DNA of 64,000 nt from Candidatus Methylomirabilota bacterium (GTDB taxonomy: Bacteria; Verrucomicrobiota; Verrucomicrobiia; Limisphaerales; UBA11358): NCBI GenBank assembly GCA_035644195.1, contig DASQOZ010000070.1:463-64462 (forward strand). The letters run 5' to 3'. The notes beneath the pieces were generated by a model. The model worked only from the letters and a program-made list of their open reading frames with translations. It had not been told where the DNA came from and searched no databases. The position numbers were made by a program, and so were the translations under genes. Below, piece after piece: positions 22,333 to 28,600 of this stretch. Numbering within the stretch: the stretch's first letter is position 1; each line of letters opens with the position of its first letter.

Positions 22333-22992
22333 TCAAAACTCCGGCGGTTGCGAACGCGCCGAGCGCATTTTTTCCGCCTCGATGATCGCCATCGTCCGCC
22401 GCAAATCTTCCTGCTTCGTCGTGCTCAACAAAAGATAATCGAAATTTTTCCACTGCGCGATTTCCTGCCGCGCAACGGCGAGACGTTTTTGAATCTCCTT
22501 CTCGCCGTCCGAATTGCGCTTTTTCAACCGCTCTTCCAATACCGTCAGCGGCGTCGGCGTCAGAAAAACCGTGACCAGCGCGCGTTTCAATTCCGGCTCG
22601 CTTTCCGCCTGTTCGCGGATCGTCGCCGCGCCCTGCACGTCCACGTTCAGCAACACATCCTTGCCCATACGTAATTTGCCGAGCAGTTCCGATTTCAAAA
22701 TGCCGTAGCTATTGCCGTAAACCGTCGCGTGTTCGAGGAAATTTCCCGCGTGCAACCGCTTCAAAAATTCCGACGCGTCAAAAAAATGATAATCCACGCC
22801 GTCCTTTTCGCCGGGACGCGGCGCGCGCGTCGTGCAGGTGATCGCGCGCGTCATGTCCGGTCGCGCGCGAAGCAATTGCTGGCAAAGCGTCGTCTTGCCG
22901 CCGCCCGACGGCGCGGAAATCAAAATCAACAGCGGCGCAGAATTTTTTTTATTCTGGCTTCTGGTTTCTGGCTTCTGGTTCCCGTTTTTCAT
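22333..22992 (-). CDS. gmk: Guanylate kinase with repeat-derived N-terminal extension
   Basis: The ATG at 22992 makes an ATGA overlap with the yicC stop. P-loop SAPSGGGKTT. The first roughly 15 aa, MKNGNQKPETRSQNKK, are encoded by a heptamer repeat. Confidence 0.85.
   Translation of the reverse strand: MKNGNQKPETRSQNKKNSAPLLILISAPSGGGKTTLCQQLLRARPDMTRAITCTTRAPRPGEKDGVDYHFFDASEFLKRLHAGNFLEHATVYGNSYGILKSELLGKLRMGKDVLLNVDVQGAATIREQAESEPELKRALVTVFLTPTPLTVLEERLKKRNSDGEKEIQKRLAVARQEIAQWKNFDYLLLSTTKQEDLRRTMAIIEAEKMRSARSQPPEF
22952..22979. repeat. Heptanucleotide tandem repeat (TTCTGGY x4) in gmk 5' end
   Basis: ttctggc ttctggt ttctggc ttctggt on the + strand, which is CCAGAAR on the coding strand. 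Confidence 0.8.
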
Positions 22993-23870
22993 TCCACGTT
23001 TTGCACTTGCTCCCGAAATCTTTCCAATTCTGTTTTCAGCGTCACGACCTCGCGCGAAATCACCGCGTCGTTCGCCTTCGAGCCGATTGTATTGATTTCG
23101 CGGTTCATTTCCTGCGCCAGAAAATCCAACGTGCGCCCGACCGGCTCGCGCGATTTCCGGCAATCTTCAAATTGTTTGAAATGACTTTGCAGCCGCGTCA
23201 ATTCCTCCGAAATGTCCGAACGATCCGCGAATAAGACAATTTCCTTCAACAACCGCTCGTCATCCGGCGCAATGTTTTCAATTCCCGCGCTCTTGATGCG
23301 TTCGAGCAATTGCTTGCGATAATTTTCCGCCGTCTGCGGCGCTTGCTTCTGAACTTTTTCGACGCTTTGCCGCATGACTTCGATTCTCGTCGCTAAATCT
23401 TCTGCCAAATGCGCGCCTTCGCGTTCGCGCATTTTCACGAGCGACGCCAGAGCTGGTTTCAATGCCTTTTCCACGGCGGGCCAGATGCTTTCTGCCTCGA
23501 CCAATTCTTCATCCGTTTGAAAAACTCCCGGCGCGCGCAAAATCTGATCCAGCGAAACGCCGCCGGATAATTTCAATTGTTTCGCCAGCTTTGCTAATTC
23601 CTTCGCATAAGCCTCGGCGAGCGGTTTATTGATGTGCATCTGCGCGGACGATTTGCCTTCGGCGGCGTGGATGGCGATGCGCGCCGTTACGCGCCCGCGC
23701 GCGACCTGCGCATTGATGGCGTCGCGCACCTGCGATTCGAGCATCTCCAACTCGCGCGGCAGGTTCACGGAAATTTCGGATTGGCGGCGGTTGACCGCGC
23801 CCAGTTCGACGGTGATTTTGAAACCGTCCCGCGCGCATTCGCCGCGACCGTAACCCGTCATGGATTTCAT
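22989..23870 (-). CDS. yicC: YicC-family stress-induced protein
   Basis: The MKSMTGYGRGE start is typical of YicC, and the long helical middle region and C-terminal domain fit the family. The upstream part of the track ORF is ignored. Confidence 0.8.
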   Translation of the reverse strand: MKSMTGYGRGECARDGFKITVELGAVNRRQSEISVNLPRELEMLESQVRDAINAQVARGRVTARIAIHAAEGKSSAQMHINKPLAEAYAKELAKLAKQLKLSGGVSLDQILRAPGVFQTDEELVEAESIWPAVEKALKPALASLVKMREREGAHLAEDLATRIEVMRQSVEKVQKQAPQTAENYRKQLLERIKSAGIENIAPDDERLLKEIVLFADRSDISEELTRLQSHFKQFEDCRKSREPVGRTLDFLAQEMNREINTIGSKANDAVISREVVTLKTELERFREQVQNVE

Positions 23871-23985
23871 CCCGCGCAGTGTGCGAAAATTCCCCGCCGC
23901 AAGCGAATAAATTTTCAAAACGCGCTCGGCGATGTGAATTCAAATCAATCTGGACGCAATGAAAATGAAAGTTTAGCGTTCAAAC

Positions 23986-24789
23986 ATGAGCTTGGTATCC
24001 GACTACTACGTTTACGTTTATATCGATCCTCGTAACTACGAAGAATTCTATTACGGCAAAGGCTGTGGTAGCAGAAAAGATATTCATCTGGTGGACGCTG
24101 GCAAATCTCGGAAGGCATTGCGAATCGCCGACATTCGCAGTGCCGGTTGCGAGCCGATTGTTCGTGTCATCGCGCGCGGTTTGACGGAGGATCAAGCTTT
24201 ATTGGTTGAGGCAACACTTCTTTGGAAGCTCCGCAAGTTCACAACCAATGAAGTTGCTGGACATTTTTCCGACAGCTTCAGACCACACGACACATTTCAT
24301 CGCGACCTGCCAGGCTTTGATTTCCAGAATCGTCTTTACTATTTCAATGTTGGCGAATGTCACCGCAGAAATTGGGATGAGTGTCGTCGCTATAATTTTA
24401 TCTCGGCTGGCGGCGGCATTCGTTGGCGAGATGCTATTTCTGGCTTTCATCCCGGTGATGTCTTTGCAGCGTATCTCAAAGGACACGGATACGTTGGCAT
24501 TGGCCGCATACGAACCAAACCGCAACCAGCAAATCAGATTCTTATTCAGGGCAAGCCTCTTCTCACGTTATGCCCACAGATGGCGCTTGATTCTGATTCC
24601 GCCGAGAAGTCGGAGTATGTTGCGATTGTAGATTGGATTAAATCACTTCCCCGTGAAAAGGCACAGATGAAACGCAAATCAGGCATTTACACGACTACTC
24701 ATGTTCGTGCGTCTCTTGATGGGCAACCCGACACCGTCGCTTTTTTGGGCGAGGCATTTGATGTAAACTTCAACGATATTTTGGCTTAA
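23986..24789 (+). CDS. GIY-YIG nuclease domain protein with C-terminal PUA-like (EVE/ASCH-like) candidate domain
   Basis: N-terminus YYVYVYIDPRNYEEFYYGKGCGSR ... EATLLW gives the GIY, YIG, Arg and Glu positions. The C-terminus NWDECRRYNFISAGGG...FHPGDVFAAYLKGHGYVGIGRI resembles EVE-type folds, by motif only. The gene is AT-rich. Confidence 0.55.
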   Translation: MSLVSDYYVYVYIDPRNYEEFYYGKGCGSRKDIHLVDAGKSRKALRIADIRSAGCEPIVRVIARGLTEDQALLVEATLLWKLRKFTTNEVAGHFSDSFRPHDTFHRDLPGFDFQNRLYYFNVGECHRRNWDECRRYNFISAGGGIRWRDAISGFHPGDVFAAYLKGHGYVGIGRIRTKPQPANQILIQGKPLLTLCPQMALDSDSAEKSEYVAIVDWIKSLPREKAQMKRKSGIYTTTHVRASLDGQPDTVAFLGEAFDVNFNDILA

Positions 24790-24805
24790 TTTTTATCCGC
24801 AATAA

Positions 24806-24866
24806 TTTCAACGCTGCCAGAAAATCCTTCGACAGCGGCGCTTCAAATTTCACCGGCCTTTTCGTG
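24806..24866 (-). pseudogene. Remnant of RluA/RluD-family pseudouridine synthase 3' end (direct repeat copy 1)
   Basis: The minus-strand reading is KRPVKFEAPLSKDFLAALKLL. It resembles the Rlu C-terminus (HP-TG-x-x-FEAPLP-D). It is a repeat of 25466-25526, with a 26/27 identical core. Confidence 0.45.
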
Positions 24867-24870
24867 CGTT

Positions 24871-25185
24871 TTAATTTTGTTTCAATTCTTCAATCAGTCC
24901 CGAAGCCAAAAGCTGCTCGAACAATTCATAGACCACCGGTCGGAAATTGATAAACACGCAAAAAATCACGCGCTCGCCGCGAACGGATTCCGCCTTGAAA
25001 ATCACCCGGTTGCGCCCGACCCGCAGCCGCGAATATCCAGCCAGCCGTCCTTCAAGCTGTTTCAAGTCGCCCATGTCTTTTTCCAGCCCTTTGATTCCAG
25101 CACTCAACACGCGTTTCGGTGACGGCGAAAGAGCTTTGATAAAATTTTCCGCGAATGGACCGATTTTTATTTTAGTCCTCATCAA
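24871..25185 (-). CDS. Type II toxin, RelE/ParE superfamily
   Basis: 104 aa with GYSRLRVGRNRVIFKA...VIFCVFINFRPVVYE, the typical RelE/ParE core. It overlaps the antitoxin gene by 14 nt. Confidence 0.7.
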   Translation of the reverse strand: MMRTKIKIGPFAENFIKALSPSPKRVLSAGIKGLEKDMGDLKQLEGRLAGYSRLRVGRNRVIFKAESVRGERVIFCVFINFRPVVYELFEQLLASGLIEELKQN

Positions 25186-25420
25186 AAACTTCGTCGAAAT
25201 CTTTGAATTTCATTTTGCCCGACTCGTAATCTTCCAGCGCCTTGAGGAATTTTTTATCGCCCAGCAATTCCATCGTCTCGATCATCGCTTCGATCCGGTC
25301 TTTGGAAAGATAAACGCCGACGACTTTGCCGTGCCGTGAAATGGCAAAGCTGTCCCGCTTGAGCAGCCGAGGCAGATTGGCCTGCGCTTCCGTCACATTC
25401 ACTGTAGATTCACTCTTCAT
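25172..25420 (-). CDS. Type II antitoxin, Phd/YefM family
   Basis: 82 aa with VNVTEAQANLPRLLKR...ISRHGKVVGVYLS and an acidic C-terminus. Confidence 0.75.
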   Translation of the reverse strand: MKSESTVNVTEAQANLPRLLKRDSFAISRHGKVVGVYLSKDRIEAMIETMELLGDKKFLKALEDYESGKMKFKDFDEVFDED

Positions 25421-25432
25421 TAACTGTATAAT

Positions 25433-25621
25433 TCATCGCTTTGTGGATTTGGTCAAGCGGAGAAACTTCAACGCATCGCGAAAATCCTTCGGCAGCGGCG
25501 CTTCAAACGTCATTTCCTTTTTTCGCGCGTGCAGCATCACGCGCGGCACGCCGGCGTAATCGCGTCTGCGGCCACCTTGCCGGGATTTGTTCAAAGAAAT
25601 TTTTTGCAAAAATGTGGCATC
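25433..25621 (-). pseudogene. Remnant of RluA/RluD-family pseudouridine synthase C-terminus (direct repeat copy 2)
   Basis: The open minus-strand frame reads ...GRRRDYAGVPRVMLHARKKEMTFEAPLPKDFRDALKFLRLTKSTKR*. The LHA and FEAPLPxDF motifs are present with an internal deletion. No catalytic domain lies upstream. Confidence 0.45.
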
Positions 25622-25671
25622 TCAATTGCAAATGAATCAAAAATTCGAGATGCTCTGGCTTCGATTTTGAA

Positions 25672-28600
25672 ATGAGCGTAAAATTAGAACCCATCCGCCC
25701 CGACAAATTGTCGTCGCATCTCATCGCGCACATCAACGTCAAGCTCGCGCTCATCGGCTGCGCGCCGGTGGCGATTGAAGGCAACCGGGAATTTTCGGAA
25801 ATTGTTTCTGCGATGGCTGCACAATCGCGGGAGAAAGACCGGTTGCTTGGAAATTATCTCAATCCTGCCGACCAACGCATCCAAACTTTTCTTTTCGATT
25901 ACCTGCAAGATGTTCCGGTGCCGAAATTGCCGTCGCACACGTTCACACTCGACCGCGCCGGACTCGCGCGCGTGCTGTCGCTGCCGATTGACCGCAACGA
26001 ATTTCATTCAGAAATCATCAATTCCTATCGCGTCGCCAACGGCGTGCTGCACAATCCAAAAAGCGACCGGCGCACGACGCAGGGAATTTTTCACGTGACG
26101 GAGGGCGGTTTGCCGATTCCCGACGACAAACTCGGGGTGCCGAAAATCGCGTTCGCCAAAATGCTCGCGCTGGCGCTCAACCCGCCGCGCGAAATCATGC
26201 GGCTTCCATTTACTGCCACACAGGCGCAACCGGCGGAATGTTTCGTCTCGCTGCTGCTCCGCCCGATTGTTTGCCCGGAAGTTCCCGGCTTCACGCCGGA
26301 AAAAACGATGGAAATCCGATTTTTTGTTCCGGGAAATCTCGTTAGCAACCTGGATTTTATCGAAAGCATTTTCGGAAACGGCGGCGATCCGATTTTGCCT
26401 GAAAATGATTCCGCGCTTGATGCTGAACATTGGACTGGTCACACCGGCTGCGTCATCCTCGCGCCGCATTTAACCAAAGCGACAAAAAAATCCGTCGGCC
26501 TGCCGCATTGGGACAAAGCGACGGAACGCCAGCGTCGCGACGGGATGTGCTGGAAAAATGAAAATGAACTCTACAACAACGGCAGCGCCTTTAAGCTGAC
26601 CTGCCGGGACGAATCCGGCGTCATCGTCACGCTCATCGCGGACAATTACTACGGCTATTGCAAAAAAGAAGTGAAGACGCAAATCAGTTTCGCCGCGAAT
26701 CTTTTTGGCAATTGCGAGGAGGAGCACGCAGGCGGCGCGCTGGTTTTTCCGAGCTACGACCTCGGCGAGGAATTCAGCGGCGACGTCCATGTCAAGCGCA
26801 TGGGCTATTCGTTCACGGACATGACTTCGCGCTTCGGCAGCGCGATGGACGTGAAGCAGGAAGGTTTTGCAGTGGACAAAAAATTTCCCGAAATCATTTA
26901 TGTCCCCGAAATGGCGCACTTCGACCTGCATAACCAGAAAATCTCATGGGAAAATGCCGGCGGCAAACACAGCATCAAATTGCAGCCGGAAAAAACTTAC
27001 GTCCGCCCGTCCGGCTACAAGGTGAAAATGGAAAAACCGCCGGGCGCGCACCGGATGTGGCGACTCGTCGGCACCGTCGCGGAAGGAACTCTTTGCCACA
27101 AACCCAGCACGGTTTCCGGCGGCGGCAAATCGGAAATTTCAAAACCGATCACCGATGCGATTTTGACCGGGCCTGTTTTTGTCACCGATTTCAAAGCGGA
27201 TTTTGATCGCGTCGCCGAATGGATTGACCACGATTATGCGAACCGGTTTGCCGACAAGACGAAAAAAGATTCGCGCTCGATTCTTGCGGCGGAACGTTCG
27301 CTCGGCTCGGTCATCAAATTGCTCACGCCGGACAAACGCGAATACACCCCCGATTACAACACATGGCTGAATTCGATCCCGCAATACGTCAAGGAACTTG
27401 TCTTCGTCGTGAAGCGTTATTACAAGCCGGAGTGGAACACGAATTGGCGCGACCACTTCAGCGTGGACATCATCAACGGCATTCCGGGCAACGAACTGAA
27501 ATGCGATAATCGCAAAATTGTGACGACGTATTTGCGCGTCGGTTTCGACGATGATGGCGCGTGGCGGACGTTTGGCTTGCGAAAAGATTTTCATCCGTCC
27601 GTGAAAATCCAAACGGAAGACGACATCACCGCGTCGGTGATTGTGCCGCCAGCCGCAATTGAAAATGTTCCGAACGCGGACAAAAATTCCGCGCTCAAGT
27701 TCGTCAAAAATTGCGAACAGCGTTTGTTCCAACGGCCGGACGACGCGATTCATCGCGGCTACGACAAACAGGCCGAATCCGATTTCGCGCAACCGGACAA
27801 TTTCTTTTCCAATTACGAACCGCTACCGGCGAAAGCCGCGCATGAATTGATCGAGGACGCGATCGGCTTTTATCAATTCACCGAGCCGATGCAATCGCTC
27901 ATCCGCGAAATTGCTGAAGTTGGCCAGCCGGAATTTTTTGTGTCAACCGCACATCCCCGATTGGTTGACGGCAAGCCGAGTAAAAATCCGCGTTACTTGC
28001 AAAAGCGTCCCGACCTCGTCAATCCGCGCGAAAGTTATCTGGCGGAAATGGCCGCGCGATTGCGGCGTCGCGTGCCGTTGAGCGAACCGCTGCATACGCC
28101 TGTATCCGTCGTATTGCCCGGACGCCGCAACAATCCGCCGGAACACGGCATCCGCTCGCTCGCCTGTTACAATCCGATTCATTTCATGGAGTTGCCGGAA
28201 TTGTTCATGGAATTTATTTGCAGCATGACGGGCAAATCGCCTTCGACGACGGGCGCGGGTTCGGAAGGCGCGTTGACCAAAGGCTCGTTCAACGCACTGC
28301 CGCCAATCATTGACCTGAACAACGCGCTCGTCTCGTTTATTCTCACCGGCCATAACGCGTTCGTGACGGCTGCCGGTTTTGTCGGACCAAAAGTGCGCGT
28401 GGACCACGACGTGAGTTTGATTGTGCCGGAAGTTTTTTGCCGGATGTCGCCGGAAGAGCGCGATCCGAAGTTTTTAATTGAAAATCATTTTCTGGAAAAG
28501 TGCGAAGACTTCGAGCACAACGGAAAAAAAACCCTCGCCAGCCATCTCGGTTATCGCATCAACGCGCGATTTGTTCACTCATTTTTTGGCCGTGTGTTCA

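Follow-up and report, generated by a model that had tools for sequence, protein, structure and literature searches.

The staphylococcal cassette chromosome (SCC) elements of staphylococci, which are 20-60 kb long, use the CcrAB or CcrC serine recombinases and a core of ~15 bp, and are inserted at the 3' end of rlmH (orfX). Integration at the ends of RNA-modification genes is also known for SGI1, which is found at trmE, and for the dusA-specific islands (PMC8409611). Addiction modules that are inserted with long (>30 bp) target duplications and have no mobility genes form a known class for restriction-modification (RM) systems; an insertion of this class is recognized as an insert of less than 20 kb without a mobility gene, delimited by a direct repeat of more than 30 bp that is present as a single copy at the empty site of a relative (PMC2853133). 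Here, we describe a toxin-antitoxin (TA) pair of the Phd/RelE type that is bracketed by two partial copies of the 3' end of rluD (hereafter also rlu), the gene of an RluD-type pseudouridine synthase. The pair is located in a 64,000-nt stretch of a bacterial metagenome-assembled genome (MAG; GenBank assembly GCA_035644195.1, contig DASQOZ010000070.1, positions 463 to 64,462 of the forward strand), to which we refer as the window; positions are those of the window unless a related locus, designated by an L number, is named. The bracketed unit measures 660 nt from start to start, its repeats are 49-80 nt long, it contains no recombinase gene, and the repeat is present as a single copy at the empty sites of 11 related loci. 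We consider it likely that recombinase-less addiction-module cassettes have been inserted at the 3' end of rluD with long target duplication, and the window is a degenerate instance, with one cassette and a truncated target gene.

Results

Repeat copies in the window

An initial reading of the sequence (hereafter, the original prediction) had proposed that two direct repeats flank the TA pair. A repeat search of the window confirmed this: a 49-nt direct repeat (24804-24852 and 25464-25512) was found, with 84% identity and a spacing of 660 nt. Across the 64 kb of the window, there are exactly two occurrences of the 27-nt core AAAATCCTTCGRCAGCGGCGCTTCAAA, also when up to 3 mismatches are permitted, and no match was obtained in 100 dinucleotide-preserving shuffles; a dispersed element was rejected because the core is present only twice in the window. 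The extent of the copies was determined with a hidden Markov model (HMM) built from the 3'-terminal 90 nt of 79 related rlu genes (nhmmer), which assigned ~80 nt on the minus strand to both the right and the left copy (Table 1). Thus, the repeat is real, whereas its originally estimated length of ~60 nt was too short. The two copies are co-oriented and bracket an intact Phd/RelE-like pair, and the left copy occupies the entire gap between the stop of the toxin gene (24871) and the stop of a GIY-YIG gene (24789). The minus-strand peptides of the two copies, ...GVPRVMLHARKKEMTFEAPLPKDFRDALKFLR... and ...KFEAPLSKDFLAALKLLR... (full readings KFEAPLSKDFLAALKLL and GVPRVMLHARKKEMTFEAPLPKDFRDALKFL), were confirmed on translation. 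An independent soil-metagenome contig from JGI (L083) is 99.97% identical to the window across positions 23943-27229 and carries both junctions; therefore, the arrangement is not an assembly artefact. The G+C content of the region 23850-25650 is below the window mean.

Both peptides had been taken to be Rlu C-termini, and comparison with intact family members bears this out. The right fragment is 64% identical to the intact 315-aa RluD-like protein of L165 (E = 7e-15, with a 9-aa gap), and the left fragment is 83% identical over 24 aa to the last 24 codons of the rlu gene of L137 (E = 4e-12; both BLASTP). The homology of both copies lies in the C-terminal segment ...PRVMLHA(x)nFEAPLPxDFxxALKxLR. 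The closest database matches to the right fragment, P0003 and P0004 (VHFQFLGHPLVGDETYG...PRVMLHARELSFIHP...EMSFEAPLPKDFREALKFLR), are RluD C-terminal pieces of 73-74 aa with 62-63% identity, one of which was named 23S rRNA pseudouridine 1911/1915/1917 synthase by JGI. The L165 protein contains S4 and PF00849 domains and scores 313 bits with TIGR00005 (cutoff 192.7); its best equivalog is RluD, at 241 bits, which is under the cutoff of 351. The 9-aa gap is due to a net 27-nt in-frame internal deletion that the remnant carries at 25523/25524, as seen in the nucleotide alignment with L081 and L082. When peptides of 35-55 aa were used alone (phmmer), no match was obtained in Pfam, NCBIfam or PDB. 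This null result is not evidence against rlu homology because such peptides are too short for generic profiles; the original prediction was to be abandoned if profile searches gave no support for the Rlu similarity, and this would be a false negative, given that close relatives prove the homology.

None of the six frames of the window contains the HRLDxxTSG catalytic motif, and neither the rlu body nor lspA of a relative has a tblastn match there; the window holds rlu remnants only and no RluA-family gene, in agreement with the claim that no intact rlu gene is present. The proposal that the left copy, too, is a decayed gene did not hold: it is a displaced partial end and never was a gene. This copy has one frameshifting 1-nt deletion close to the former rlu stop, and its tail is comparable to the RVKN* ends of relatives.

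The rluD-yicC site in relatives

The RluD C-terminal piece was used to scan metagenomes, and 80 loci were obtained, in which yicC lies 7 to 3465 nt from the rlu stop. Empty sites, with a distance of 7-193 nt, are represented by L084, L101, L106, L122, L146, L148, L151, L154 and L159, and by L081 and L082. In 17 of 79 related Verrucomicrobiota metagenome loci, the rlu end has strong secondary copies (E < 1e-10), and all of these copies are co-oriented and located downstream of an intact rlu. There are four copies in all in L094, and three in each of L110, L121 and L137. The occupied loci thus consist of an intact rluD followed by one to three small cassettes, each ending in a partial copy of the rlu 3' end. 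In L165-L167, the order is lspA, the 315-aa RluD-like gene, Phd, RelE and the copy, with a bracketing repeat of 49 nt, followed by yicC, gmk, coaC and the genes of a histidine kinase (HK) and a response regulator (RR); this order equals that of the left flank of the window read from right to left. The claim that mobile DNA repeatedly targeted the rlu 3' end while carrying a replacement copy is supported by these intact-gene arrays and by the empty sites.

The cassettes carry Phd/RelE, two kinds of RHH/PIN pair, an AbiEii-like nucleotidyltransferase (NTase) with an Rv0078B-like antitoxin, an ArsR-type HTH gene, and unknown genes; judging by homology, the cargo is almost entirely of the TA type. 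Cassettes of every type start right after the last conserved rlu codons (...LK(F/L)LR), and the TTGAC box of the TA and VapBC cassettes overlaps the rlu stop. At the 3' side, the rlu homology begins at a type-specific point: exactly at TTTGAAG in the PIN type, ~30 nt further upstream in the Phd/RelE type, and beyond that in the others, so that each cassette carries from ~50 to >100 nt of rlu homology, depending on its type. The rlu reading frame is kept in every occupied relative locus, a point that is moot in the window, where the gene body is gone. Copies have decayed or have been partially deleted in L107, L093 and L157.

Two further observations concern the same spacer. In L094 (4475-4690 of that locus), the rlu stop adjoins an insert of ~170 nt (translation …PHPGLLPRGEGE…), beyond which lies half a copy of the rlu end. 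The insert looks like a palindromic element of the repetitive extragenic palindromic (REP) or miniature inverted-repeat transposable element (MITE) type, which suggests that small non-coding elements, too, insert into the copies or disrupt them. Furthermore, the rlu-yicC spacers of L085, L099-L102, L131, L140, L143 and other loci are 0.4-3.5 kb long and contain unrelated cargo, such as a beta-lactamase-fold gene and lipoprotein-like genes, most of them read from the opposite strand, without duplication of the rlu end. Because unbracketed cargo occurs in many relatives, the spacer is a general variable region that is repeat-bracketed only in part.

The toxin-antitoxin pair

The 82-aa gene lies upstream of the 103-aa gene and overlaps it by 11 nt. 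The antitoxin scores 25.4 bits with PF02604, which is under the gathering score of 29.8. The toxin has no match in Pfam, NCBIfam or PDB; 68 relatives of it were found, many of them named RelE by JGI or NCBI. In gene order and homology, the pair qualifies as a predicted type II TA system of the Phd/YefM-RelE/ParE class. The last codons of the right rlu copy include the -35 box of a promoter-like site, and a TTGAC box directly after the rlu end also starts the TA-type and VapBC-type cassettes of relatives. A search for the same cassette adjoining rlu 3' ends elsewhere was successful: at 8 metagenome loci, the same Phd/toxin pair directly follows rlu, with 77-90% identity to the Phd and 54-88% identity to the toxin of the window.

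Across all loci, the antitoxin is 77-90% identical, whereas the toxin falls into two subtypes that are only ~54% identical to each other; L094, L097, L098, L110, L121 and L165 have one of these, and the window, L104, L145 and L157 have the other. The promoter and 5' region of L104 and L097 are near-identical, and their toxin subtypes differ, which suggests recombination within the TA operon. More distant Phd/RelE-like pairs were found at two other sites, one between xseA and xseB, where it splits the exonuclease VII gene pair (L164, 4715-5312), and another between two genes of pyridoxal-phosphate (PLP) enzymes of Cys/Met metabolism (L168, 4763-5288).

Search for a mobility mechanism

In ~83 loci, neither the sequence between the copies nor the 6 kb downstream of rlu revealed a recombinase or transposase, and a screen for tyrosine and serine recombinase motifs over the same range was negative. 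There is no mobility family among the 25 most frequent of the 92 Pfam families in 87 larger downstream ORFs. The rlu-end copies have no inverted-repeat core, and no attC-like fold was seen: for single-strand folds of six copies, on both strands, z ranged from -0.05 to +1.54 compared to shuffles. A degenerate 41-nt pattern, used to look for an attP of a phage or plasmid, had no match in IMG/VR. The 722-nt contig L169 spans a whole cassette, starting in one copy and ending in the next, and has no terminal overlap. An integron was rejected, as no intI or tyrosine-recombinase motif was found in any locus, no integrase is present among the 25 most frequent Pfam families, and there is no attC fold.

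The strongest competitor of the proposed explanation is that the cassettes are non-autonomous elements integrated by a recombinase that acts in trans and is encoded elsewhere in the genome, with the rlu 3' end serving as attB/attP, in the manner of pseudo-SCC elements at rlmH, cis-mobilizable elements (CIMEs) or Xer-dependent dif modules. Such a mechanism would account for the strictly uniform orientation of the copies and the tandem arrays, for the constant left junction directly after the ...LK(F/L)LR codons, for a ~30-nt segment that is common to all strong copies, and for the preservation of the rlu reading frame in every occupied locus, and it has precedents in the integration of SGI1 at trmE and of the dusA islands (PMC8409611). 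However, the length of the carried rlu homology varies among the cassette types, and the recombinase, the mobility families, an inverted-repeat core or stable single-strand fold, and a viral contig with the repeat sequence were all absent from the searches described above. We regard integration in trans as unlikely, while still treating it as a live alternative.

Cassette exchange and origin of the copies

Similarities of the cassettes and of the surrounding host sequence disagree in both directions. The PIN cassettes of L119 and L121 are 90% identical, versus 74% for the rlu bodies; for L108 and L110, the two values are 90% and 78%. Conversely, they are 74% and 89% for L105 and L108, and the values for L098 and L104 are 71% for the TA cassettes and 90% for the flanks. 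The flanks and yicC of L104 are ~90% identical to those of the L094/L097/L098/L165 clade, and its toxin subtype is that of the window, L145 and L157. This disagreement indicates that cassettes have been exchanged between lineages. In addition, many secondary copies match the rlu of another lineage (92-96%) better than the primary copy of their own locus. The bias of secondary copies toward their own locus is weak, and some private variants are common to the copies of one locus.

There are two allelic types of the rlu C-terminus in the clade. The best matches of the window's left copy are the rlu ends of L138, L137 and L147, and two of these loci, L147 and L138, also rank among the nearest relatives of its yicC; the right copy is of the other allelic type. 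As the left copy shares its lineage with yicC and the right copy is of a foreign type, the left copy is the displaced resident end, and the right copy, on the side of the gene body, is the replacement end that arrived with the cassette.

These comparisons bear on a purely vertical origin, in which the rlu end was duplicated locally, once or a few times in the distant past, with TA genes trapped between the duplicates, and differential deletion and decay followed. A history of this kind would fit the invariable position of TA ahead of PIN, the decayed or partly deleted copies of L107, L093 and L157, the agreement of cassette and flank divergence within one clade, and the private variants common to own-locus copies, which suggest gene conversion. 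It is, however, difficult to reconcile with at least six cassette types that each have their own junction, with the strong discordance of cassettes and flanks (90% vs 74%, and 71% vs 90%), with secondary copies that resemble the rlu of other lineages more than their own primary copy, and with the different allelic types of the two copies in the window. Consequently, we consider purely vertical descent improbable, clearly more so than a recombinase acting in trans.

The GIY-YIG gene

As originally noted, an AT-rich GIY-YIG gene lies immediately beyond the left copy (G+C of 0.44-0.49 in this patch vs 0.535). Its stop overlaps the former rlu stop, and it is placed between that stop and the yicC leader, with no repeat copies around it. 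Residues 6-95 of the protein match PD-T4-3 (2e-9) and residues 117-260 match PDC-S11 (8.6e-28) in PADLOC; the protein is thus predicted to be a fusion of a PD-T4-3-like nuclease with the C-terminal domain of the PADLOC candidate system PDC-S11, and is probably not a homing endonuclease but a defence nuclease of the single-gene kind. No homologue was found in the other 80 rlu loci. The genes beyond the last copy are lineage-specific and unbracketed, and the GIY-YIG gene holds this position in the window; it is no part of the cassette system, and none of the other arrays contains it. Homing endonucleases are among the proteins with GIY-YIG domains, and the location of the gene next to the left copy, with overlapping stops, might suggest that such an enzyme targeted the rlu 3' end and that the duplications arose by double-strand-break repair; we reject this model as hardly credible, because a homologue is lacking from all 17 other loci in which cassettes are bracketed, the best protein matches are anti-phage defence models, and the gene lies outside the repeat-bracketed unit.

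Rearrangement of the locus

By comparison of the loci, lspA-rluD-yicC-gmk is the ancestral gene order. It is found in L081; in L082, 28 nt separate the rlu stop from the yicC leader; and rlu and yicC are adjacent in L081, L082, L165 and many metagenome loci. In the left flank of the window, yicC is followed by gmk, a flavoprotein gene, a histidine kinase gene and a sigma-54 regulator gene, in the same order as in L165; hence, the rlu remnant belongs to the left flank. The original prediction had looked for an intact rluD-like gene upstream of orthologues of the gene at 25672, which was the wrong flank: among the 80 Verrucomicrobiota loci fetched through this gene, the 18 closest all lack an rlu upstream of it, and none of the 80 contains the rlu catalytic motif or yicC. 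The weak tblastn matches in these loci are antisense chance matches.

The rlu homology ends at 25561 on the right, and homology to the upstream region of the 1138-aa gene of L002, L005, L007 and L009 begins at ~25573-25592. The junction is also present in the independent contig L083. A rearrangement at this breakpoint thus removed lspA and most of rlu, and fused the remnant to the native upstream region of the gene at 25672. Decay of the target after the insertion had also been proposed; decay did contribute, in the form of the in-frame deletion, whereas erosion alone is not the explanation, since the gene was truncated by the rearrangement. The 1138-aa product has no Pfam match and is a pyrophosphate (PPi)-dependent phosphoenolpyruvate carboxykinase (PEPCK; PDB 6K31 and 8E1U, E = 0).

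Other features were noted in this region. NCBI annotates the remnant as a 53-aa hypothetical protein, VE344_07485, of the 'Methylomirabilota bacterium' MAG (25433-25609, minus strand; an ORF of 53/58 aa), and this annotated protein is a pseudogene scar. The close relatives of the flanking genes all belong to Verrucomicrobiota/Limisphaerales, and by this comparison the Methylomirabilota label of the MAG looks wrong. Upstream of the PEPCK gene, there is a sigma-54-type TGGCAT-N5-TTGCA box (25615-25630), conserved in L002, L005 and L007. In relatives, the PEPCK gene often adjoins a phosphofructokinase-like gene and a gene cluster with conserved ends such as ...GGGSKDTWVL, the products of which we take to be circularly permuted ATP-grasp, alpha-E and transglutaminase proteins.

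Table 1. Features of the rlu remnant, the bracketed cassette and their neighbours in the window.
Feature	Position	Strand	Evidence or remark
Left copy (c2)	24789..24868	-	Displaced partial rlu 3' end, last ~24 codons and tail; nhmmer E = 1.1e-19
Right copy (c1)	25449..25529	-	nhmmer E = 7e-20
RluD-type pseudouridine synthase remnant, 3' end only	25433..25561	-	Includes the right copy c1
Phd/YefM-type antitoxin gene, 82 aa	25172..25420	-	PF02604, E = 1.2e-5; NCBIfam YafN, E = 4e-4
RelE-like toxin gene, 103 aa	24871..25182	-	PHROG 1213 'RelE-like toxin', E = 5.3e-6
Promoter-like site TTGACC-17-AATTAT (putative)	25428..25456	-	Match of a consensus scan only
GIY-YIG nuclease gene	23986..24789	+	Convergent with the cassette; Pfam LEM-3 GIY-YIG, E = 1e-5
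yicC	22989..23918	-	Pfam YicC-like N (1e-44) and C (4e-43); ancestral downstream neighbour of rluD, synteny anchor
Rearrangement breakpoint	25562..25572		Left, rlu remnant; right, native upstream region of the PPi-PEPCK gene
PPi-dependent PEPCK gene, 1138 aa	25672..29088	+

Discussion

Representing a cassette as a putative promoter of its own, a Phd antitoxin, a RelE-like toxin and a 50-90-nt copy of the rlu end, we envisage the insertion with long target duplication as follows: (i) incoming DNA, in which a foreign-type rlu 3' end precedes a TA pair, would recombine with the resident rlu via the conserved gene end; (ii) the other side would join within or through the resident rlu end, either by one-sided homology and an illegitimate join, or by a Campbell-type exchange through the copy; (iii) the gene body would then read into the imported end (the right copy), leaving rluD intact, and the resident end would be displaced past the toxin gene (the left copy). 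Insertion would thus be driven by homology and not by a dedicated site-specific enzyme. Repetition with different TA modules could produce the co-oriented arrays that are found in relatives, and recombination between copies could delete, swap or decay cassettes, with the copies and the flanking genes supplying homology for their spread and loss. Post-segregational killing by the TA pair is a plausible means of keeping the insert stable. Later, in the lineage of the window, a GIY-YIG defence-type gene was inserted after the displaced end, and lspA and the bulk of rlu were lost in the rearrangement that joined what remained of the gene to the region upstream of the PEPCK gene.

It should be noted that several observations weigh against homology-driven insertion with long target duplication, in addition to the possible involvement of a recombinase in trans. 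Within the L094/L097/L098/L165 clade, cassette divergence follows flank divergence, indicating that much of the inheritance is vertical. The copies of the window are only 84% identical, so that either the event is old or the ends are of different origin. In every array that holds both, TA stands before PIN, and never the reverse, which fits a few founding events with differential loss equally well. We caught neither an excision product or circular form nor a pair of near-identical genomes with a recent gain or loss. Finally, the TA sites of L164 and L168 have neither a target duplication nor an rlu copy; target duplication as an inherent property of the TA pair is ruled out by these two loci.

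If the proposed explanation is true, selfish TA modules can spread and accumulate at the conserved end of a housekeeping gene without mobility genes, via a copied gene end, and the concept of insertion with long target duplication would come to cover, beyond isolated RM cases, a hotspot that is used recurrently and forms arrays, in a phylum in which the biology of mobile elements is little studied. A broader generalization, which we offer tentatively and hold to be somewhat less probable than its converse, is that Limisphaerales-type Verrucomicrobiota have a cassette platform. There, the terminal ~25 codons of rluD would act as a portable attachment or homology sequence for recombinase-less, promoter-bearing TA (possibly defence) mini-cassettes that are captured, stacked, passed from lineage to lineage and lost, in an integron-like array run by host homologous recombination or by a recombinase in trans. 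The rluD-yicC spacer could then serve to study how uncultured Verrucomicrobiota of soil and peat capture genes independently of a recombinase, and might be a natural landing pad for genetic tools. For annotation, short rlu-like ORFs after TA pairs in these genomes are to be read as junction scars.

No description of this arrangement was found in the literature searched, and its similarities are spread over several known systems. The arrays resemble chromosomal integrons in having small, co-oriented cassettes of one or two genes, many of them TA, with a repeated terminal site, and in being anchored at one end; here, the anchors are rluD on one side and yicC on the other. They differ from integrons in that there is no intI and no attC-type hairpin, the cassettes have promoter-like boxes of their own, and the repeat is housekeeping coding sequence. 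With SCC at rlmH, a group to which recombinase-less pseudo-SCC and composite arrays also belong, they share the 3' end of an rRNA-modification gene as a target that is kept intact, delimiting direct repeats, tandem stacking, and recombinase-less units; unlike SCC, the units are only 0.6-0.8 kb long, no recombinase was found, and the repeats measure 50-100 nt.

The similarity to the trmE and dusA islands (PMC8409611) consists in the targeting of a conserved end of an RNA-modification gene, the restoration of its frame (as seen in relatives) and flanking direct repeats. Those islands, however, encode an integrase and excision functions and span tens of kilobases; of the features of an integrase-borne or SCC-type island, repeats derived from the 3' end with a restored frame were found here, and an element-encoded recombinase was not. 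The closest correspondence is with the RM systems whose insertion was accompanied by long target duplication (Nobusato/Furuta/Kobayashi, PMC2853133), which likewise have no transposase or integrase, have long repeats that are single at the empty site, and can overlap the 3' end of a gene. In contrast to those inserts, the cargo here is type II TA, the bracketing copies are diverged (76-88%; 84% in the window) and sometimes of different allelic origin, and at least six cassette types occur at one target, in tandem arrays. What is new, then, is the recurrent use of one housekeeping gene end by several TA cassette types, stacked in tandem, in a Verrucomicrobiota host.

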